From an uncultured bacterium (lineage in GTDB: Bacteria; Patescibacteriota; Minisyncoccia; Phycocordibacterales; GWA1-40-21): 64,000 bases of DNA. Below are positions 340 through 60,416 of this stretch, in pieces. Both the position numbers and the translations under genes were made by a program. Each line of letters opens with the position of its first letter. Position 1 is the first letter of the stretch. The stretch is taken from positions 405,015 through 469,014 of the forward strand of contig CAWDSG010000002.1 in assembly GCA_963804975.1 (NCBI GenBank), written 5' to 3'. Below the pieces are notes generated by a model. The model was not told the origin of the DNA. It searched no databases and saw nothing but the letters and a program-made list of their open reading frames with translations.

Positions 340-945
340 TTAAATAGGAAAACCAATGTAAGCTTTGAGAATTTTCTTGCCGCTGATTGCTAGCGCAATT
401 GATCTCATGGAACCATCGTCAATATCCCCTTTAAGTTTTTTCTTCAAGCCCTTTCTGCCATTTGTGCCTGTGCCGCCTTTAAAAATAATCGGCAGTAAAT
501 ACTTTTCCTTTTGCAAAAGGTGTATATTTGTTTTCAGCATATTGGAAATGCCATATCGTGATCTTTTTTTAAGAAGCTCGGGATTATGATTTAAAGCATA
601 TTTCACTTTTTGTGCTGTTTCAGAAAGTGAACCATTCGTCCATGATAAAGGCAGACTGCCGGCTTTTTTCCAAACCCCGACTTCGCTAATTTTTACTTCT
701 CCTAAATACCATCTGCTATTATTATAGGCAACTAATCTTTTCCTCCATAGGCCCGCTATAATCTTATTTAACTGAGATTCTTTTAATTTAATTGTTTTAA
801 TTTTAACGAGTCGTAATTTTTGTTTAAAAATCTTTTCTGGAACAAAATTCAGATGTTTCCTCCTATTTTTCTTTGTACCGATAAAATCGGAAATTACATA
901 GGCGCGTTTTACTTCAATTATTCTTACTGGTTTGAGAATTTTCAT
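340..945 (-). CDS. hypothetical basic protein (201 aa)
   Basis: ORF track. Start abuts stop of upstream GH130 gene, suggesting translational coupling. No motif I can name with confidence. Confidence 0.45.
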   Translation of the reverse strand: MKILKPVRIIEVKRAYVISDFIGTKKNRRKHLNFVPEKIFKQKLRLVKIKTIKLKESQLNKIIAGLWRKRLVAYNNSRWYLGEVKISEVGVWKKAGSLPLSWTNGSLSETAQKVKYALNHNPELLKKRSRYGISNMLKTNIHLLQKEKYLLPIIFKGGTGTNGRKGLKKKLKGDIDDGSMRSIALAISGKKILKAYIGFPI

Positions 946-10029: not shown

Positions 10030-11856
10030 ATGGAAATTCGCAATATAGCAATAATCGCACACGTTGACCACGGTAAAACCACCCTCACAGACGCAATTTT
10101 GAGGCAAACGGGCATGGTGGAAGAAGGCGTGAGTATGGACAGCAATAAACTCGAACAAGAGCGCGGTATTACCATTTATGCCAAGAACACCTCCATTTTT
10201 TACAAGGATACAAAAATAAACATCGTTGATACTCCCGGTCACGCGGATTTCGGCTCAGAAGTTGAACGTGTTCTCCGCTCTATTGATACGGTACTTCTTG
10301 TGGTGGATGCGCAAGAAGGCCCGATGCCGCAAACTAGATTTGTCTTGAAAAAATCTCTTGAGCTCGGACTTAAACCGATTGTCGTTATAAATAAAATTGA
10401 CAAATCTGCCGCAAGACCGGAAGAAGCTCACGAAGAAGTGCTTGAACTTTTTATGGAACTTGGCGCAAATGACGAGCAACTGAACTTCCCTACTATTTAC
10501 GCTATCGGCAAAAAAGGCGTTGCGTGGAAAAACCTGCCTACCGGCCAGGCAGGTCTGAAAGATGAACGAAAAGACCTGCCTACCGGCCAGGCAGGTCTAA
10601 CTCCTCTTTTGGATCTGATTCTTGAAAAAATTCCGTCAGCTTCAACGCAGGAAAATCTCGCCGCTCCTTTTACGGCGCAAATTTTTAATCTCGCTTACGA
10701 TAATTTTCTCGGCAGAATGGGAATCGCCAGAATCTATACCGGAAAAGTAAAAGACGGACAGACAGTTTTTGTCAAAGACACAGACGAAAAAAGCAGACAA
10801 GCAAAAATCACAAAACTTTTCACTTTCAAAGGAATTCAAAGAGATGCCGTGCCGGAAGCCGCTGCCGGAGACATTGTTATGATTGCCGGAATTCCCGACG
10901 CTTACATCGGAGAAACTCTTTGCGAAAACACAGACCAAAAAGCTCTGCCTTCCATAAATATAGATGAGCCGACAATTTCTTTGAGTTTTTTGGTCAATGA
11001 TTCCCCGTTTGCAGGAAGAGAAGGAAAATTTGTTACAGGACGACAGATAAGAGAACGACTTGAAAAAGAATTGGAAGTAAATGTCGGGCTCAAAATAGAT
11101 TTTAATACCGATCCGATCACAGTTTACGGCAGAGGCGAACTTCACATCGCAATCTTGATAGAAAATATGCGCCGAGAAGGTTTTGAGCTTCAGGTTTCCC
11201 AACCGCAAGCAATTATTAAAGAAATTGACGGCGTAAGATCCGAACCGTTTGAAGAAGTCATCGTGGACGTGCCATCGGAATTCCAAGGAACGATCATTGA
11301 AAAACTCGGCAAAAGAAAAGGGATTATGAAAGATATGAAAATCAAAGACAACCAGGTCCGCATGGTCTTTGAAATTCCAACAAGAGGACTTCTTGGATAC
11401 AGAGGGGCTTTTATTATGGATACAAAAGGCCTTGGAATCCTTTCATCGCGATTTATCGGCTTCAAGCCATACACCGGAGAAATTCAGAAGCAAGAATTCG
11501 GCTCAATGACCTCAATGATTTCCGGAAAAGCTATGGCTTACTCGCTTTGGAACTTGCAGGAGCGCGGCGTGCTTTATATTGATCCTGCCATAGATATTTA
11601 TGAAGGAATGGTCATCGGACATGTTTTGAACGGCGAAAATCTTGAGGTAAACCCGATAAAAAATAAAAATCTTACGAACGTCCGCGCCTCGGCAAGCGAT
11701 GAAGCGCTTTATCTTGTTCCGCCATTTCGCCTTGATATTGAAAAAGGTTTGGAGATTATGCAAGACGATGAATATCTGGAAATCACTCCGAAATCCGTTC
11801 GTCTCCGAAAAAAGTTTTTGACTAAAAATGATAGATCAAAAGCCGGAAGAAAATAG
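10030..11856 (+). CDS. typA: translational GTPase TypA/BipA
   Basis: [20 protein letters not shown]-domain and overall BipA architecture. Carries a tandem 42-bp GC-rich palindromic insertion encoding [23 protein letters not shown]. Confidence 0.9.
10532..10596 (+). repeat. tandem duplication of GC-rich palindromic element ACCTGCCTACCGGCCAGGCAGGT, in frame inside typA
   Basis: Two copies (10532..10554 and 10574..10596) of a 23-bp near-palindrome, GC-rich against an AT-rich background. Confidence 0.8.
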
Positions 11857-11924: not shown

Positions 11925-12524
11925 TTAAAATACGTTTAATAAAGTTTTTATACCTAGTATCATAAGTACAATGGCAAGAATTTTAAAAGTAATGCTTACC
12001 AGATTTTTCTTTTCTAAAACTGGACGGAATTTAAAGAATACAAAAGCCAGCAATGTAGTTGCTAAGAGCCAAGCAATTTCAAATATAAACAGAAAAATGA
12101 ATTTTCCGCCAATAAGAACGCTGTCCAGTATTAAGGCCTTCGGAATTCCCACGGCTATCCAAAAGATCCAATAACCGCTGTTTAGAGCCGTTAAAATTAT
12201 GATCTGATAAAAAGTGAGAATCTGTTTTGATTCGATATTTATTTTTTCTATTTTCCAAACCTTGGAAGCCAGCCAAAAAAGAACGATTGCCCCGCCAATT
12301 GAAATGATCTGTATGGCAATTTTTGACAGACCGATCTTGTAAACAATATAAATGGCCAAAAAAGCGCCGACAGTTTCGGCAATCAGAGCCAAAAAAACAA
12401 TCCTCATTCCCTTTCGGAAACTGCTATTTAAAATCTCAGCAAACGTTCCTGTAAGAATCGGGCCGGGAGTGGCTCCGCCGATCAATCCCAAAAGAAAAGC
12501 TTCAAATAATGAACCTATGACCAT
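11925..12524 (-). CDS. LysE/RhtB-family amino-acid exporter-like membrane protein
   Basis: Multi-TM protein with GPILTGTFAEILNSSFRKG segment resembling LysE translocators. Confidence 0.5.
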   Translation of the reverse strand: MVIGSLFEAFLLGLIGGATPGPILTGTFAEILNSSFRKGMRIVFLALIAETVGAFLAIYIVYKIGLSKIAIQIISIGGAIVLFWLASKVWKIEKINIESKQILTFYQIIILTALNSGYWIFWIAVGIPKALILDSVLIGGKFIFLFIFEIAWLLATTLLAFVFFKFRPVLEKKNLVSITFKILAIVLMILGIKTLLNVF

Positions 12525-12580
12525 GTTCGTATGATATCAATAATTTAACTAACTTTAAACTCCTTATTTATATTGATAAT

Positions 12581-12614
12581 AAAAATCATTCGCCAAGTTT
12601 GGCGAATGATTTTG
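12581..12614. terminator. terminator hairpin, near-identical paralog of the 11886 hairpin
   Basis: AAAAATCATTCGCCAA-GT-TTGGCGAATGATTTTG. Differs from the 11886 copy by compensatory stem changes (TCTCC/GGAGA to TCGCC/GGCGA). Confidence 0.7.
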
Positions 12615-12628
12615 ATGAAGCTCAATAT

Positions 12629-12856
12629 TTATTTTCTTGGATAAACCCTTTTAATGGTACGGCCCATAGCTTCAGCTATTGACTTACCGATATACCGTCG
12701 TCCACGAAGAACATCATTTAGATATTGTGGCGAAATATTTAATTCTTGAGCCGCTTTTTTCTGACCTCCTTTTGATTTTACAAACTCATTAATTTCCTCT
12801 AAAAAATCTTCTTCAGAAAGCGGTTCTTTTTGATTGCTTCCTATTTTATCAGTCAT
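12629..12856 (-). CDS. XRE-like helix-turn-helix DNA-binding protein (75 aa)
   Basis: GGQKKAAQELNISPQYLNDVLRGRRYIGKSIAEAMG fits an HTH_XRE pattern. Solitary, with no toxin partner seen. Confidence 0.5.
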   Translation of the reverse strand: MTDKIGSNQKEPLSEEDFLEEINEFVKSKGGQKKAAQELNISPQYLNDVLRGRRYIGKSIAEAMGRTIKRVYPRK

Positions 12857-12988
12857 GATGACCTCCAGAAAATGTTGAGAAACTAAGTTGTATCTGTAAA
12901 AAATCTTCCGATTATCAGCATAATGTTATTTAATAATTTGTCAAATCTTATTTGTTTTAAATACTAATTTTGATACAATGTATAAGTT

Positions 12989-24139: not shown

Positions 24140-24215
24140 TGGCCTTATCGTCTAACGGTTAGGACATAGCCTTCTCAAGCGTTAGAATCGGGGTTCGATT
24201 CCCCGTAAGGTCACC
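24140..24215 (+). tRNA. tRNA-Glu(CUC)-like; all arms canonical except a poorly paired anticodon stem (possible pseudo-tRNA or unusual tRNA)
   Basis: Acceptor GGCCTTA/TAAGGTC, D-arm GTCT..GGAC, loop TTCTCAA with U33 and anticodon CTC, T-arm CGGGGTTCGATTCCCCG, encoded CCA. Anticodon stem TAGCC/GCGTT pairs at only 2 of 5 positions. Confidence 0.5.
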
Positions 24216-24239
24216 ATTTCGTGCTAGCACGAGATATAT

Positions 24240-29897: not shown

Positions 29898-30016
29898 GAT
29901 AGATTTTTTTAAGCGAGCAAAGCGAGATTTTTAAAAATCATCACCCTGTGAAATATTTTGATTTATCAAAATCAAATCGTGGAAGATTTATATTTCACTG
30001 AGGTAAATTTTCGTAT

Positions 30017-30066
30017 CTTCCCACTTCTTCCCACCTGATGTATATTTTATTACACTTTATCCCACA
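30017..30066 (-). promoter_or_regulatory. putative MraZ operator: GTGGG direct repeats (GTGGGAAGAAGTGGG plus a third GTGGG 31 nt away) about 120 nt upstream of mraZ
   Basis: On the minus strand GGTGGGAAGAAGTGGGAAGA gives two GTGGG boxes with a 5-nt spacer, as described for MraZ-binding repeats in other bacteria. Confidence 0.45.
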
Positions 30067-30235
30067 ATACAACAAGTCATCTCACTTCTCTTCCGCTATG
30101 ATTCCGGCTGATTATTCAAAAAATATGAATAGAAAAAATACGGCTCAAAATAAGCTTATAAAAATAAAAACGAACAAAAAAGTCATTTGAAACTTTTCCG
30201 CTCGTTTTAAGTTATCAACAGGTTATGAATAGTTC

Positions 30236-30504
30236 AAAAATAAAAGGGTTCCGCACGGAACCCTTTCGGTCAAGCCACAATTTGTTAATTGGCGCGTGGT
30301 ATTTCACTTATGCTTCATTTTCGACTCCAGAATTACTGGCATAATTCTTTCAGTGTCTCCCACGTATTCTACTCAACCAAATAACTCTTATAGGCCCAGT
30401 AACGGGGATCGAACCCGTCCCACCAAAGTTCCTACTCCCATGATGCCTTTCATGAAGGAACCCGACAACTTGGTAGTGCCATGAGAACTTACTGTTGTTA
30501 TCCC
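30236..30504 (-). ncRNA. candidate ~270-nt small RNA of unknown class, with its own promoter and terminator; contains a tRNA-like T-arm
   Basis: Minus strand: TTGACT-N17-TAATAT promoter right after the lysS stop, and the intrinsic terminator GAAAGGGTTCCGTGCGGAACCCTTT + T-run at the 3' end. Internal GGGACGGGTTCGATCCCCGTTACTGGGCC T-arm/acceptor-like element. CCAGTAATTCTGGAGTCGAAA resembles a tmRNA 5' end, but no plausible tag ORF. Confidence 0.35.
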
Positions 30505-30559
30505 AAAAATATATTAATATTTTAAAATAATAAAGTCAAGAAAAAAAATAGTTTTTATT

Positions 30560-42063: not shown

Positions 42064-43077
42064 TTACCTTTTAGCTATAATAGATTTCTTATACGTATCC
42101 AAATGCTCCAGTGCAATTCCCGTCCCTTTTGCCACACAGTAAAGCGGTTCGTCCGCAACCTGCGCTTTCACTCCAGTTCTTCTGAAAACAAGCTCTGTCA
42201 TATTTCTAAGCTGGCTTGAACCACCAGTCATTATTATTCCGTTGTCAATAATATCCGCGGCAAGTTCAGGTGGAGTTTCCTGCAAAACATCTTTTATCGC
42301 TTTCACCATATCTTTCAATTCTTTTGAAATAGCTTTGACAACTTCATTGGTTTTGAGTTCTGTAGAGCGAGGAAGTCCGGTCATAAAGTCCCTGCCTTTT
42401 ACAATCATAACCAGTTCTTCTTCCACGGGAACGGCACTTCCGATTTTTATCTTGATATCTTCCGCGGTCTTGTCTCCCACAGCAAGATTGAAAGTTTTTT
42501 TCAAATAATCTGCGATAGCAGCATCAATTTTATTTCCTGCGCATTTCACGGAAGTTGAAGATACGATTCCTCCCAAAGAAATGACTGCAACATCCGTCGT
42601 TCCCCCGCCAATATCCACCACCATGTGCCCCATTGCTTCATAAATGGGAATGCCGGCTCCGATAGCAGCTAAAATGGGCTCCTTGACCACGTAAGCGTTT
42701 TTTGCTCCGGCTCTTATCGCCGCCTCAACTACTGCCCTTCTTTCCGTTGATGTGATTCCCGCGGGTACGGAGACCATGACTTCCGGTTTGAAAATATTCC
42801 ATTTGCCGAGAGCTTTGTCTATAAAATATCTGAGCATTGCTTCGGTAATTCTGTAATCGGCAATGACGCCGTCTTTCATCGGACGATAAGCGATAATGGA
42901 ATCCGGAGTCCTTCCGATCATGCTTTTTGCTTCAATCCCGACTGCAAGAATTTTGTTGTCCTGCTCGGCTATGGCAACGACGGATGGCTCAAAGAGAACC
43001 ACTCCTTTATTCGGCAAAAAAACCAGCGTATTCGCCGTTCCCAGATCTATCCCCAATTTGCGAATGAATATGCTCAT
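42064..43077 (-). CDS. MreB/Mbl-like actin homolog (second paralog)
   Basis: LGIDLGTANTLVFLPNKGVVLFEPSVVAI and the full actin-fold motifs. Confidence 0.85.
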   Translation of the reverse strand: MSIFIRKLGIDLGTANTLVFLPNKGVVLFEPSVVAIAEQDNKILAVGIEAKSMIGRTPDSIIAYRPMKDGVIADYRITEAMLRYFIDKALGKWNIFKPEVMVSVPAGITSTERRAVVEAAIRAGAKNAYVVKEPILAAIGAGIPIYEAMGHMVVDIGGGTTDVAVISLGGIVSSTSVKCAGNKIDAAIADYLKKTFNLAVGDKTAEDIKIKIGSAVPVEEELVMIVKGRDFMTGLPRSTELKTNEVVKAISKELKDMVKAIKDVLQETPPELAADIIDNGIIMTGGSSQLRNMTELVFRRTGVKAQVADEPLYCVAKGTGIALEHLDTYKKSIIAKR

Positions 43078-43129
43078 TAAAGTTATATTATATCTTTTTT
43101 AAGTAATTGCAAATTAAAAATACCAGAGG

Positions 43130-43321
43130 TTGACAAAATAGTTTGTTTTGGTAGTATACTGATTAAGTGCGCTCACAAATGGTTACCGTGCTTGTGACCT
43201 GAGAACCTTATGGTAATGCACACCAAGAGGTTGGAGGTTAGATTCTTAATCTCTATGAGCGTCACCAAAACACCCATAAAAAATATTGGGTCAGCCATCT
43301 CTTCGGGGATGGCTTTTTTTA
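43130..43321 (+). ncRNA. candidate structured leader or small RNA upstream of murA: consensus sigma-70 promoter plus ~150 nt plus intrinsic terminator
   Basis: TTGACA at 43130 and TAGTAT/TATACT at about 43152..43160. Closing helix GCGCTCA...TGAGCGT encloses about 110 nt. Terminator GCCATCTCTTCGGGGATGGC + T7 ends at 43321, 45 nt before the murA ATG. Confidence 0.4.
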
Positions 43322-43366
43322 TGTTTCATTTATACAAAAAATCTATAAATATGCTAGAATCTTTTT

Positions 43367-44674
43367 ATGACCGACAAAGGACCGATGAATTTCGAGATAG
43401 ACGGCGGGAAAAAACTTTCCGGCACCGTCATAACCAAAACATCAAAAAACGGCGCGATGGGCATTATTTCCGCATCACTATTGAACAAAGGAAAAACGCT
43501 TCTCAAAAATGTTCCTAAAATCGAAGAGGTTTACAGGATGGTGGAAGTGCTTCAAAGCATCGGTGTATCGGTGCGATGGATCGACAGCAACCTTGAAATC
43601 AAAGCGGATAAAATAAATCTGAAAAATATCAACAAAGAATCTGCGGAAAAAACAAGAAGTATCATCATGCTCATCGGCCCGCTTGCCCATAGATTCAAAA
43701 AATTTTCGCTTCCGCATTCCGGCGGATGTAAGCTAGGAAGTCGCACCGTAATGCCTCATTTCTTTGCGCTAGAAAATTTAGGCATCAGTATCAAAACAAG
43801 GCATGATAGCTACAGTATTTCGCATAAAAAACTTTCGCCCAGCGAATTCACGCTCTATGAGTCCGGAGATACCGTCACAGAAAATGCAATTATGGCCGCA
43901 TCGCTTATTCCCGGAAAAACAAAGATTAAATTCGCCTCCGCAAATTATCAGGTGCAGGATTTATGCTTCTTTCTGCAGAAATTCGGCGTCAAAATTGACG
44001 GAATCGGCACAACCACGATTGCAGTCCATGGCGTCAAAAAAATAAATAAAAATATCACGTATTATCTTGCCGAAGATCCGATAGACAGCATGTTTTTTAT
44101 CGCAGTTTCAGCTGTGACCAAATCCGGCATCATTATCAAGCGTTGCCCTATTGATTTCCTTGAAATAGAACTATTGAAACTCAAAAAAATGGGTTTTAAA
44201 TATAAAATTTTGAAAAAATATAAAGCGCTGAATAGAAAAACAAATCTGGTTGATATCAAAACATTTCCGTCAAATCTTGTCGCTCTCGGCGACAAAATAG
44301 AATCCCGGCCGTATCCGGGGCTCAATATAGACAATCTTCCCTTTTTTGCTGTCATTGCCACGCAAGCAAAAGGCCAGACGCTCATCCACGACTGGGTTTA
44401 TGAAAAAAGAGCGATACATTATAAAGAGCTGGATCGGTTGGGCGCTGATACAATCCTTGCCGATCCGCACAGATTTTACGTAAACGGAAAAACGAAGCTC
44501 AAGCCCGCAGAAATTATTTCCCCTTCCGCTCTCCGTCCTGCAGCTGTTGTGCTTATCGGAATGCTGGCCGCACACGGAAAATCCATCTTGAGAAATGTTT
44601 ACAACATCAACCGCGGGTATGAGGATATCGCGAAAAGATTGAATGAGCTCGGAGCAAAAATAAAGATTCTCTAG
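43367..44674 (+). CDS. murA: UDP-N-acetylglucosamine 1-carboxyvinyltransferase
   Basis: 435 aa EPT-fold sequence (LSGTVITKTSKNGAMGIISASLL...). Confidence 0.9.
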   Translation: MTDKGPMNFEIDGGKKLSGTVITKTSKNGAMGIISASLLNKGKTLLKNVPKIEEVYRMVEVLQSIGVSVRWIDSNLEIKADKINLKNINKESAEKTRSIIMLIGPLAHRFKKFSLPHSGGCKLGSRTVMPHFFALENLGISIKTRHDSYSISHKKLSPSEFTLYESGDTVTENAIMAASLIPGKTKIKFASANYQVQDLCFFLQKFGVKIDGIGTTTIAVHGVKKINKNITYYLAEDPIDSMFFIAVSAVTKSGIIIKRCPIDFLEIELLKLKKMGFKYKILKKYKALNRKTNLVDIKTFPSNLVALGDKIESRPYPGLNIDNLPFFAVIATQAKGQTLIHDWVYEKRAIHYKELDRLGADTILADPHRFYVNGKTKLKPAEIISPSALRPAAVVLIGMLAAHGKSILRNVYNINRGYEDIAKRLNELGAKIKIL

Positions 44675-44677
44675 AAA

Positions 44678-44881
44678 TTAATCCGTACCTAATATTTCGG
44701 AATGATTTTCCTTTGCTAATTTTCTTAATTTTATAACAGCTTCAATTTCTTTAATATCTTTCTCAGTAATAGGATGTACACCTTTTTCTTCTACCTTTTT
44801 TAGAATTTCTTTCCAAGACATATCATCAGTTAACTGAAGTATAAATTCTTTTGTATTTTCTGGATTTGCTGGTAATTCCAT
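44678..44881 (-). CDS. hypothetical small protein (67 aa)
   Basis: ORF track. Immediately downstream of the GNAT gene. Confidence 0.35.
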   Translation of the reverse strand: MELPANPENTKEFILQLTDDMSWKEILKKVEEKGVHPITEKDIKEIEAVIKLRKLAKENHSEILGTD

Positions 44882-44913
44882 ATAATTTTATATTAATCAT
44901 TAATAAGTTAAAG

Positions 44914-45405
44914 TCAACCAACGAACATTTCTAAAGTTAAATCATGATCTTTAAATCCGATTTTTTTGTAAAAACTTATTCCTTCTCTATTTTTTGCAGA
45001 AGCTTTAACAGTAATGCGATAAACTCTGTTTTTCCTACACCAATTCATAAAATTTTTCGCTAATTTCGTACCTATTCCTCTGCCTCTAAAACTTTTTTCG
45101 ATAGACATGTTTTCCAATTCGGCATATTTTGCTTTTTTGAGAAAAAATTCTCTTTCAGAAATTCCACCGCATAAATAGCCAATAATTTTACCTTTTAGTT
45201 CTGCTATTTCTACAAAGCTGTTTTTCCCCATAATTCTATTTTTAAAATACTTTTTTCCTTCATTGTAAGTCCATTTTAAATTTAAACTCTTGTCATACTC
45301 CTTGTATTCTTTTTTAAATAAATTAAAATTTAATTTCAAAATACCGCCAAGATCTTCAATTTTTGCCTTTTTAATTAAAATATCGTTTTTTATGAAGGAT
45401 TCCAT
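44914..45405 (-). CDS. GNAT family N-acetyltransferase
   Basis: ENMSIEKSFRGRGIGTKLAKNF acetyl-CoA binding motif (R/QxxGxG/A). Confidence 0.75.
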   Translation of the reverse strand: MESFIKNDILIKKAKIEDLGGILKLNFNLFKKEYKEYDKSLNLKWTYNEGKKYFKNRIMGKNSFVEIAELKGKIIGYLCGGISEREFFLKKAKYAELENMSIEKSFRGRGIGTKLAKNFMNWCRKNRVYRITVKASAKNREGISFYKKIGFKDHDLTLEMFVG

Positions 45406-45468: not shown

Positions 45469-47400
45469 ATGAAAATTCTGGAAGTTATTCCAATTTCAAA
45501 AGGAATCACAATGGAAACGCTTACGTATTTTACCGGAAGCGATGTTCCCGCTGGTTCCGTGGTAAAAGTTCCGCTCAGGAAAAAAGCGATTTCGGCAATC
45601 GTCCTGTCCGTCAGAGAGGCGGAAATCATGAAGTCGGAAATAAAAAAATCAGCATTTTCGCTGAAAAAAATCGAAAAGATAAAACATTCAAATTTGCTTA
45701 GAAAAGAATTTGTGGAAGCATCGGTGGATACGGCCGAATATTATGCCGGCTTTACCGGAGCTGTACTTGGTTCAATGATTCCTAAGGTTTTTTTCGAAAA
45801 TCTGGACAAGCTTAAAATCCCAAAAAGTGAAGTTTTAGCCGAAACGCCAAAAGCTGCGGAAAAATTCGCCATCCAATCAAATGACGAAGACAGATACGCC
45901 CATTATAAAAGCATTATTCGGGAAGAATTCGCAAAAAACTATTCCGTGTTTTTCTGTCTGCCGACAATTCAGGATATTAAAAAAGCAACTGAGACCTTGA
46001 AAAAAGGAATTGAACATTACACCTTTACGCTTCATGGACTGATGAAAAAGAAAGAAATCATAGAAATTACAAATAAAATCCTCAAAGAAAAACATCCTAT
46101 TTTGATAATCGCCACAGGCGCATTTTTGAGCATTCCAAAAGAAAAAATCGGCACGATAATAATAGACAAGGAAAATTCGCGGGCTTACAAGCAGCAGACA
46201 AGACCATACATTGACATCAGAAATTTCGCTGAAGCATTCGCAAATAAAATAAAAGCAAAAATAATTTTCGGCGACCTGCTTCTGCGCGCAGAAACGATAT
46301 ACCGATACAAAAAAGGAGAGCTGATAGAAATCGCTCCGCTCAAATTCCGTTCGCTCACTACTTCAAATGAAGTGCTTATAGATATGAAGCAAAAAAAGAC
46401 GGGCAAAAATGATGAGAAAGAAACAAAAAAAGACGAATTCAGGATATTCAGTCCGGAGCTTGAGAAAAAAATAAAGGAAAATATCGAGAATAACGAGCAT
46501 ATGTTCATTTTCACCGCAAGGCGAGGCCTTTCCCCTTCCACACTCTGCTCCGATTGCGGAAATATAGTCAAATGCAATTCTTGCGGAGCTCATGTAGTTT
46601 TGCACCTACCTAGCCGGCAGGCAGGTAAAGCGACGGAGAATTTCTTTTTGTGCCACAGATGCGGAGAAAGAAGAAGTGCAAATGAAAAATGCGTAAACTG
46701 CGGAGGATGGAAGCTTGCAACGCTTGGAATCGGCGCAGAACTGATTGAAGAAAAATTGAAGGAAATGTGCCCAAAATGCAAAATCTGGAGATTGGATGCC
46801 GATGTTGCCAAAACCCACAAAAAAGCCGGAGAGATTGCGGAAAAATTTTACAATTCTCCGGAAAGCATTCTGATCGGAACGGAAATGGCGCTTCTTTATC
46901 TTTCAAAAAAAGTTGAAAATTCCGCCGTGGTTTCCATGGATACTTTTTTCTCAATCCCCGATTTCAGGGTAAACGAAAAGGTTCTGAATATTCTGCTGAA
47001 AATACGCGCTATTACGGACAGAAGTCTGATAATACAGACCCGCGACAGCTCGCAGAAAGTTTTCAACTACGCTTTGACCGGGAATTTGATTGACTTCTTC
47101 AAAGATGAAATTGACGATAGGAAAGCTCTCGGCTATCCGCCATTTTCAACTCTCATAAAAATATCCGTTTCAGGTTCCAAAGAAGACGTTTTGAAATCCG
47201 CGGAAGATTTGCAAAAAACTATAGAACCGTACGAAATGGATGTATTCCCCGCGTTTATTCCGCAGAAAAAAGGAAAATGCGGCATAAATGGAATAATAAA
47301 AATCCCAGGAGGAAAATGGCCCGACAAAAATATTTCCGAAAAACTGAAATATCTTCCGATGAATTTCTCCGTGAATGTGGATCCGGATAGTTTATTGTAA
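45469..47400 (+). CDS. priA: primosomal protein N' (PriA) with degenerate helicase motifs
   Basis: N-terminal 3'-binding domain, Cys-rich zinc-binding region (CSDCGN..CNSCGAH..CHRCGE..CVNCGG), RRG and GTEM motifs. Walker A is absent and the DEEH box reads IIIDKENSRAYKQ. ORF track start at 45433; the Met at 45469 is more likely. Confidence 0.8.
   Translation: MKILEVIPISKGITMETLTYFTGSDVPAGSVVKVPLRKKAISAIVLSVREAEIMKSEIKKSAFSLKKIEKIKHSNLLRKEFVEASVDTAEYYAGFTGAVLGSMIPKVFFENLDKLKIPKSEVLAETPKAAEKFAIQSNDEDRYAHYKSIIREEFAKNYSVFFCLPTIQDIKKATETLKKGIEHYTFTLHGLMKKKEIIEITNKILKEKHPILIIATGAFLSIPKEKIGTIIIDKENSRAYKQQTRPYIDIRNFAEAFANKIKAKIIFGDLLLRAETIYRYKKGELIEIAPLKFRSLTTSNEVLIDMKQKKTGKNDEKETKKDEFRIFSPELEKKIKENIENNEHMFIFTARRGLSPSTLCSDCGNIVKCNSCGAHVVLHLPSRQAGKATENFFLCHRCGERRSANEKCVNCGGWKLATLGIGAELIEEKLKEMCPKCKIWRLDADVAKTHKKAGEIAEKFYNSPESILIGTEMALLYLSKKVENSAVVSMDTFFSIPDFRVNEKVLNILLKIRAITDRSLIIQTRDSSQKVFNYALTGNLIDFFKDEIDDRKALGYPPFSTLIKISVSGSKEDVLKSAEDLQKTIEPYEMDVFPAFIPQKKGKCGINGIIKIPGGKWPDKNISEKLKYLPMNFSVNVDPDSLL
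46605..46626 (+). repeat. GC-rich palindromic element copy (CCTACCTAGCCGGCAGGCAGGT), in frame in priA between zinc-finger cysteines
   Basis: Encodes HLPSRQAGKA. Confidence 0.6.
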
Positions 47401-47403
47401 AAA

Positions 47404-47476
47404 AACAAGCGCAATTAAAAAAATTCTCCGAGAACTGTTTGAACGAAGTGAGTTTTCGAGGAGAAATTTTTTAATT
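47404..47476. repeat. hairpin-embedded conserved-core element, copy 5 (22-bp IR around core GAGAACTGTTTGAACGAAGTGAGTTTTCGAG)
   Basis: AACAAGCGCAATTAAAAAAATT ... AATTTTTTAATTGCGCTTGTT, between the convergent priA and ftsQ stops. Confidence 0.8.
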
Positions 47477-47493
47477 GCGCTTGTTTATATTAA

Positions 47494-48345
47494 TTAATTT
47501 TTACACACTGCAGCAGGACTGCATACAACCCTGTTTCCGTAACGCAAATCAACATAATTTATTTTTGCAAGCGATGCTTTGTCCATTTTGATAAATCCGT
47601 CATTTACAAGCGCCTGCAAATTTATCAATGATTGTCCGAATGTTTTTTCGTCATTGAGCAAAATCTTGCCTCCATTTTGCAAATAAACTTGATATGTATG
47701 AGCATCAACCGCATAAAAATACTCCGGATAAAAATCAAGCTGGCTCAAAGCTCCGATAAAAGCTGAGATTTCGGCAAATCTATGGCTGTCAAAATAAAAT
47801 TCTCCTATCGGATTTTGATTCGTTATCATGCCGAAATATTCAGGAAACGCGCTTATCACCGTTGAACTTGCAAACACAAAACCTGTCTTATCCATCAGAA
47901 AACAATTTCCCGGCACATCCGGAGTGCCTCCGCACCAATGATTTTGGGCAACCCGCTCGGACACTTTAATTTCTATATCATTTAAATTTTTGAATGATAT
48001 TTTTACCGAATTTATTGTTTTTATATCGCTCAAAATCTGATTTTTAATATCATTTCTTTCCAAAAGCAAATAATTATCTGTCGGAATAATCAGCAGATAT
48101 CTTTTGTTAAGCTCCGCATTCACAATCGCCGAAATTTCACTGCTTGATACGGATGAATTGCCGGCAATGGAAACATTCCGTATCCGCACCTTATCCGAGG
48201 TAAGTCCGAGAATGCACAGCGAAATGAGAAATAAAATATAAAGAGCCGAGAGGCCGATTTTTCTTATGCGGCTCAATCTCCTCTTTTTCCTCAAGGATTG
48301 GTTTATATTTGATCGCTGCTGCATAGCGAATTTATTTCTTTCCAA
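47494..48345 (-). CDS. ftsQ: FtsQ/DivIB-like cell division protein (POTRA domain)
   Basis: N-terminal basic region plus TM, POTRA-like segment; typical bitopic layout. Confidence 0.5.
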   Translation of the reverse strand: MERNKFAMQQRSNINQSLRKKRRLSRIRKIGLSALYILFLISLCILGLTSDKVRIRNVSIAGNSSVSSSEISAIVNAELNKRYLLIIPTDNYLLLERNDIKNQILSDIKTINSVKISFKNLNDIEIKVSERVAQNHWCGGTPDVPGNCFLMDKTGFVFASSTVISAFPEYFGMITNQNPIGEFYFDSHRFAEISAFIGALSQLDFYPEYFYAVDAHTYQVYLQNGGKILLNDEKTFGQSLINLQALVNDGFIKMDKASLAKINYVDLRYGNRVVCSPAAVCKN

Positions 48346-57913: not shown

Positions 57914-57933
57914 CTATACAAACACTATACCAA

Positions 57934-58013
57934 AAAGGGCGGCATGGCGCAAAAATTTTCTTCGAGAACTGTTTGAGCGAAGCGAGTTTTTGAGAAGATA
58001 ATTTTTATGCCAT
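57934..58013. repeat. hairpin-embedded conserved-core element, copy 6 (20-bp IR AGGGCGGCATGGCGCAAAAATT around core CGAGAACTGTTTGAGCGAAGCGAGTTTTTGAG)
   Basis: Between rpmG and tRNA-Trp. Confidence 0.8.
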
Positions 58014-58031
58014 GCCGCCCTTACCCCGTTT

Positions 58032-58190
58032 TTATTTCTTGGCTTCTTTGTGCACTGTCTGTTTTCTGCACCATTTGCAAAATTTCTTAAGCTCTATTTT
58101 GCGCTCAACTTTCTTTTTATTTTTTCTCGTCCAATAATTGATCCTTCTACAATCCTTGCAGGCAAGTTTTATCAGTTGTGGCTGTGGCAT
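58032..58190 (-). CDS. rpmG: 50S ribosomal protein L33
   Basis: MPQPQLIKLACKDCRRINYWTRKNKKKVERKIELKKFCKWCRKQTVHKE: L33 zinc-ribbon pattern. The ORF-track ORF is longer; the true start is the internal Met. Confidence 0.75.
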   Translation of the reverse strand: MPQPQLIKLACKDCRRINYWTRKNKKKVERKIELKKFCKWCRKQTVHKEAKK

Positions 58191-59984: not shown

Positions 59985-60011
59985 AAAGGGCCCGCTTTTC
60001 GCGGGCCCTTC
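59985..60011 (-). terminator. terminator hairpin for rnpB (AGGGCCCGC-GAAAA-GCGGGCCCT + T-run on minus strand)
   Basis: Seen directly. Confidence 0.7.
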
Positions 60012-60416
60012 CCATAAACCTTTCTACCTGTAAGCCGAATTCTGTTGATCATATTGCTATGATCAGATAGCCATCTGTCTGGGCCAACGATTGCTCACTG
60101 GCTCAAGCGGCGCTTCCGCACTGAAACGGACACGGCCTTGCATTCAAGTAAGGATTTTGCCGTTGCACTCTTTTAGTCGCCTAAAAGATTTATCCTGTCT
60201 TGCGGCAGGATAGATTTTTTCTTTCGAAAAAATCCGTCACTGTTCTCACCTCTCATATCGCTATGGACGGGCGTTACCCGCTACCTTTCCCAGCACTTTT
60301 ATACTACCAATGATGAATATTTTAATACCGATATAATTCGTAGTATAAAGGTGCTGGGTGAATGTTCGGACTTTCCTCCCCGATTAAAAACCGGAGTAAC
60401 TATCCGATAAAAAGGA
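60010..60416 (-). ncRNA. rnpB: RNase P RNA (bacterial type A)
   Basis: Minus strand contains GGAGGAAAGUCCGAACA (P4 5'), GGGUAACGCCCG, AGUGCAACGG, UGAGCCAGUGAGCAAUCGUUGGCCCAGACAGAUGGCUAUC, ACAGAAUUCGGCUUA (P4 3'). TTGATT-N17-TATAAT promoter at about 60452..60424. Confidence 0.85.

Follow-up and report, generated by a model that had tools for sequence, protein, structure and literature searches.

Several riboswitch families, among them the SAM-I (S-box), the yybP-ykoY Mn2+ and the cobalamin riboswitches, have four-way-junction aptamers coupled to terminator expression platforms. The ydaO architecture, that of the c-di-AMP riboswitch (ydaO/yuaA, RF00379), is pseudo-two-fold-symmetric. CPR bacteria have tiny genomes and, to our knowledge, mostly do without the classical small-RNA chaperones. 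A search of the literature on regulatory or structural small RNAs in CPR/Patescibacteria found none.

The element described here is from a 606-kb CPR genome of the Patescibacteria/Paceibacteria lineage, of which a stretch of 64,000 nt (the window) was analysed. It lies in the 289-nt spacer between mreB and murA, which are divergently transcribed. The element is best read as a self-contained, lineage-specific small non-coding RNA gene that probably arrived as a cassette of about 200 nt between the core promoters of mreB and murA. We give this reading a probability of roughly 0.55. Like the SAM-I/S-box, yybP-ykoY and cobalamin riboswitches, the element has a P1-closed four-way junction of about 100 nt that is followed by a terminator upstream of a biosynthetic gene, but it differs from them in having no model match, no antiterminator and no conservation, and in the presence of a murA promoter after the terminator. 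With the c-di-AMP riboswitch the only likeness is the cell-wall gene context; the element folds as a simple four-way junction and does not match that family at E<=10. Coordinates of all the features are collected in Table 1.

Table 1. Coordinates of the element, of neighbouring genes and of other features discussed in the text (window positions, unless a related locus is named)
Feature	Position	Strand	Remarks
mreB	42064-43077	-	
TTGCAAA, read as -35 of the divergent mreB promoter	43107-43113	-	invariant in alignment A3; left boundary of the insertion
Predicted small-RNA promoter, -35 hexamer TTGACA	43130-43135	+	perfect consensus match
Predicted small-RNA promoter, extended -10 TGgTAGTAT	43149-43157	+	16 nt after the -35
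Putative transcription start of the small RNA	43164-43167	+	foot of helix P1; placed from the -10 spacing
Four-way-junction core, 99 nt	43167-43265	+	predicted fold
Helix P1	43167-43175 with 43256-43261 and 43263-43265	+	U43262 bulged
Hairpin H1	43181-43199	+	loop CGUGCUU; inside P1
Hairpin H2	43204-43232	+	loop AAUGCAC; inside P1
Hairpin H3	43233-43254	+	loop AUUC; inside P1
A-rich linker	43266-43292	+	weak hairpin ACCCA / UGGGU (43272-43276 with 43287-43291)
Intrinsic terminator	43293-43320	+	9-bp stem and UUCG loop (43293-43314); T-run 43314-43320
Predicted murA extended -10 promoter TATGCTAGAAT	43350-43360	+	followed by 6 nt and the ATG; outside the small RNA
murA	43367-44674	+	ATG at 43367
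rnpB, class A RNase P RNA	60015-60415	-	95.8 bits, E=6e-30
Inverted-repeat copies, locus L008	2662-2797, 5118-5252		
Inverted-repeat copy, locus L014	2662-2800		
Inverted-repeat copies, locus L015	2555-2690, 5798-5935		
Inverted-repeat copy, locus L015	~508-522	-	
Inverted-repeat copy, locus L006	1180-1265		

The original prediction had proposed a promoter composed of TTGACA and TATACT. The -35 hexamer is present as described, but TATACT (43155-43160) would leave a less favourable spacer of 19 nt. The best -10 hexamer is TAGTAT (43152-43157), which has a 16-nt spacer and, taken with the -35, scores 10 of 12 consensus matches; it is counted as extended because a TG is present upstream. TGnTAnnnT is the usual promoter form in this DNA and is found upstream of many genes as well as of tRNA-Trp (TGGTATAGT). 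The putative start of the RNA was placed at the foot of P1 because leaderless genes in this genome have the ATG about 6 nt after the -10.

A structured region of about 150 nt closed by a long-range helix with internal hairpins had also been proposed. The helix, here termed P1 (GUGCGCUCA paired with UGAGCG(U)CAC), and three hairpins are found in the predicted fold, but the length requires correction, as P1 closes 99 nt. The minimum free energy (MFE) of positions 43160-43325 is -55.8 kcal/mol with a z-score of -4.2, and none of 200 shuffled sequences was as stable. For the core alone (43165-43270) the MFE is -35.7 kcal/mol (z = -4.0) and the MFE structure is the same as the centroid. Pair probabilities are about 0.9 or more in all helices, save for a few terminal pairs at 0.6-0.76, and most pairs are at 0.93 or higher. 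Six G.U pairs on the plus strand become A.C mismatches if the minus strand is read, and the minus strand folds less well; the six G.U pairs thus agree with the orientation of the promoter and terminator. It should be added that the GUGC of loop 1 is complementary to the GCAC of loop 2. A kissing interaction between the two loops is possible from the sequence, or the match may have arisen by chance, as a 4-nt match of two 7-nt loops is not improbable. The fold is without covariation support because homologues were not found.

The intrinsic terminator that had been proposed just before murA is confirmed. It consists of the hairpin AGCCAUCUC-UUCG-GGGAUGGCU and a T-run, and ends 45 nt 5′ of the murA ATG. 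The hairpin has a free energy of -14.4 kcal/mol and forms at a probability of about 1.0. Open reading frames across the element have no Pfam matches, and the element has no terminal repeats, and neither a second copy nor similarity to a gene fragment within the window.

The statistical weight of these signals was assessed over the whole window. In a scan of folding energies adjusted for GC content by regression, the core ranks 56th of 5114 windows, or in about the top 1%. Promoter-like sites with at least 10 of 12 consensus matches number 30 in the 128 kb of both strands, and are thus fairly frequent in this AT-rich DNA, but only three of these have the TG. Single signals are each of moderate weight; their ordered combination on the same strand within an intergenic insertion is unlikely to have come about by chance. 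The GC-adjusted scan also gives other strongest-folding windows at 57926-58035, 47376-47510, 10501-10660, 12501-12685 and 30101-30285, several of which resemble bidirectional terminators. Long spacers are found in the window at 12525-12988 and 29898-30559.

Of importance to the interpretation of the locus is the presence of what appears to be murA's own promoter. An extended -10 motif, TATGCTAtAAT, precedes murA at the same place in most relatives; the TGCTA core of the motif does not vary in a six-way alignment (A3). At the gene starts of the whole window, Shine-Dalgarno motifs are almost absent, and many first genes have a TGn-extended -10 with its end about 6 nt ahead of the ATG, a layout that points to widespread leaderless mRNAs in this genome. 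The murA arrangement, TATGCTAGAAT followed by 6 nt and the ATG, is this genome's usual first-gene layout, and therefore murA is most likely expressed as a leaderless mRNA begun downstream of the terminator. On the other side of the element, the sequence following TTGCAAA on the minus strand has a -10-like hexamer at about 16 nt and then the mreB ATG.

The relatives of this MurA are all from Paceibacteria-type metagenome-assembled genomes. No other protein on record is more than 85% identical to it, and the MurA search gave no relative between 85% and 100% identity. In about 60 related loci, mreB and murA are neighbours in divergent orientation. In the two closest species (loci L001 and L012, with MurA 85% and 80% identical) the genes are likewise adjacent, the spacer is 70-72 nt long and the element is absent; it is also absent from relatives that, like this genome, have no N-terminal HTH domain in MurA, where the spacer is 70-111 nt. 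The blocks TTGCAAA and TGCTA, both invariant in A3, are separated by 6 to about 50 nt in relatives and by 236 nt in the window. The additional sequence of about 200 nt is the cassette of promoter, RNA and terminator, which lies exactly between the mreB -35 and the murA -10. As judged from these motifs, the cassette is inserted without disturbing the predicted core promoter of either mreB or murA.

Searches for the element elsewhere were negative. Neither nhmmer nor blastn found a homologue in 80 murA loci, and a covariance model built from the single sequence (R1) matched only itself in the window and 87 related loci (about 0.63 Mb). Two scans of metagenome contigs, one with a loop-and-junction pattern and one with a junction pattern with R/Y helices, gave no matches, nor did four pattern scans of viral sequences. 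A BLAST search of phages matched the terminator only, and one of plasmids gave nothing. The one copy found is from the same strain: the sequence is present base for base in an independent assembly, Logan ERR10755942, and this identity rules out an assembly artefact. With respect to conservation or covariation in related genomes, as might be expected of a small RNA, only this identical same-strain copy was found.

Other lineage-specific DNA is also present around murA. A GNAT acetyltransferase gene (163 aa) and a 67-aa open reading frame with a weak match to DUF6996 are situated between murA and priA (44678-45405, minus strand). This island has a low GC content (0.21-0.30) and is found in this genome only; priA directly follows murA in, for example, L001. 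Two relatives have non-coding stretches of about 300 nt in the mreB-murA spacer (L042, ~2360-2670; L049, ~2370-2650) that are richer in GC (35-45%), have no long open reading frame and no Rfam match at E<=1. These could be other unannotated RNAs.

The order of promoter, P1-closed structured RNA, terminator and biosynthetic gene had led to the proposal of a transcription-attenuation riboswitch or leader of murA, with c-di-AMP as a candidate ligand. In such a model the four-way junction would be an aptamer, for c-di-AMP or a cell-wall precursor for example, that gates read-through of the terminator, and the upstream promoter would be a second, regulated promoter of murA. As internal genes are translated without Shine-Dalgarno motifs here, a read-through transcript would in principle be translatable. 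However, a riboswitch gene is generally transcribed through the element with no promoter between the two, and here the conserved murA promoter, the predicted TATGCTAGAAT, lies between the terminator and the ATG. An antiterminator that competes with the terminator and is linked to P1 would also be expected, but none was found in constrained folds, whether either terminator arm was kept single-stranded, all terminator pairs were forbidden or P1 was opened. The terminator arms have no alternative partner in these folds, and thus there is no expression platform; the terminator remains intact when P1 is opened and is structurally independent of the junction. Two checks that accompanied the proposal, an Rfam/Infernal scan that includes ydaO and a comparison of murA upstream regions, also go against it. 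Rfam 15 was scanned over the whole window at the gathering threshold and over the element at E<=10 as well; no family, riboswitches and ydaO included, was found on the element, and the only hits in positions 43050-43400 were chance ones at the terminator. The lack of a match carries weight because the same E-value mode recovers a divergent RNase P RNA at E=6e-30. No aptamer conserved with covariation is found upstream of murA orthologues: the element is absent from all 87 related loci, including those that also have no HTH domain. The riboswitch or leader reading, c-di-AMP included, is not supported and appears very unlikely, and since murA has a conserved leaderless promoter past the terminator, a murA riboswitch is not an appropriate annotation for the element. 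The independent small RNA that had been offered as the alternative, with a promoter and terminator of its own, is consistent with all of the results against a leader.

A cloverleaf with likeness to tRNA, in which ACCA (43264-43267) follows an acceptor-like P1, was also considered; such an RNA would be matured by RNase P and 3′ nucleases, and might be aminoacylated or serve as a decoy. The element shares with tRNA and tRNA-like cloverleafs a closing helix and three hairpins, in a four-way junction of 99 nt; the ACCA comes directly after the last P1 pair when U43262 is bulged, and GUCACCA also ends one tRNA gene in the window. Yet the junction geometry differs (linkers of 5, 4, 0 and 1 nt, versus 2, 1, 4-5 and 0 in tRNA), the conserved loop motifs, those of the T-loop and D-loop, are missing, and CCA is encoded in only one of the three tRNA genes of the window. 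ARAGORN gave nothing credible at default or relaxed thresholds, nor is there a match to the tRNA model of Rfam at E<=10, so that a tRNA or tmRNA identity was rejected, and a tRNA-like RNA seems highly improbable. A serious rival, even if an unlikely one, is that the DNA is inert, i.e. the relic of a recombination event or mobile element in an insertion hotspot, in which the signals and the fold are fortuitous or decaying and have no function. The mreB-murA spacer does behave as a hotspot, with diverse lineage-specific small open reading frames and non-coding stretches in relatives, and the GNAT gene with its 67-aa reading frame is a second lineage-specific insertion just downstream of murA. 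The absence of homologues and of covariation support, and the only moderate statistics of the individual signals, would also be explained. On the other hand, inert DNA would not be expected to have a perfect -35, a TG-extended -10, a well-defined fold at the predicted start and a 9-bp UUCG terminator, all in order on one strand, and the lack of terminal repeats, of a second copy in the window and of similarity to gene fragments does not speak for a mobile-element relic.

One of the tRNA genes in the window is unusual. The gene at 24141-24216 (plus strand) has an Rfam model score of 45 bits, and ARAGORN gives it a four-base anticodon, 'ctca', with no amino acid assigned. It is the sole CCA-encoding gene among the three.

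The reading of the element as an independent RNA gene is supported by a bona fide rnpB in the same window that has the same layout. The rnpB score is below the gathering threshold of 100 bits, and the gene is therefore missed by a scan at that threshold. It is preceded by TTGATT, 17 nt and TATAAT, and has downstream, at ~59985-60012, an intrinsic terminator made up of a hairpin and a T-run. With rnpB and stand-alone sigma-70 small RNA genes the element has in common its own -35 and -10, a structured body at the start, a GC-rich hairpin with a U-tract, and an intergenic location. Unlike these, it has no match among described families and no homologue that could be detected, and sister species do not have it; the SRP, 6S, tmRNA and RNase P models do not match the element at E<=10.

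Taken as an independent small RNA gene, the element has, as sequence signals, its own promoter and intrinsic terminator on one strand of an intergenic region, and its expression can be envisaged as follows. RNA polymerase would start at about 43164-43167 from the strong sigma-70-type promoter (TTGACA, 16 nt, TGgTAGTAT) and produce an RNA of about 155 nt, in which the first 99 nt form the P1-closed four-way junction and are followed by the A-rich linker with its small hairpin. Transcription would stop constitutively at the autonomous terminator, at about 43320 and upstream of the murA promoter, and murA would be transcribed separately, as a leaderless message, from TATGCTAGAAT. We infer that the unit is transcribed, that the 5′ end is at the position given and that its product is trans-acting. 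Because the body is compact and highly structured and the single-stranded segments are short, the RNA seems likelier to be a stable one with a protein-binding or structural role than a regulator that works by base pairing. Predicted duplexes with 50 gene starts of the window gave no convincing target and did not single out murA, mreB or others.

The murA promoter region of relatives shows features of its own. Most relatives have a MurA with an N-terminal XRE-type HTH domain of about 70 aa (PF01381, PF12844, PF13560), in proteins of 500-512 aa; examples are found in L004 (2165-2367), L023, L025 and L026 and in proteins P0003-P0009. In HTH-MurA loci the murA -10 is inside a perfect palindrome, TATAGCATATATGCTATA or ATATCATATATGATAT. 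The strict palindrome pattern was matched in 17 of the 58 HTH-containing loci and in none of the 30 that have no such domain. These observations suggest that a MurA-HTH fusion represses its own promoter. Neither the HTH domain nor the left half of the palindrome has been retained in the genome analysed here. A search of the literature on HTH-MurA found nothing relevant.

A repeated inverted-repeat element is also present in several of the related loci (Table 1). Its ends are ACCCGTTAAAGTTTTTGCTGAYG and CATCAGCAAAAATTTTCTCGGGTAA, and the interior is variable. It is inserted in front of different genes (HTH-murA, priA), each time exactly between the ATG and a promoter of the leaderless type, and the arms covary between copies (GCTGA/TCAGC, GTTGA/TCAAC, GCCAA/TTGGC and GACTGA/TCAGTC). 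Possible identities are a miniature transposon-like repeat and an RNA element of the 5′ UTR. It is absent from the window.

The cassette between mreB and murA might be looked at in a broader way, as the first representative, so far from one species, of a new class of four-way-junction RNAs of tRNA size in CPR bacteria, perhaps with a kissing interaction between loops 1 and 2, that acts in trans by binding a protein or ligand and was recently gained as a cassette. This broader proposal is rather improbable. The element is an orphan candidate of a known kind, and its interest is modest absent proven transcription or homologues. If real, a strongly promoted RNA gene with clear limits and a good fold that is present in one species and not in its sisters would represent a tractable case of the recent gain of an RNA gene in a reduced genome.
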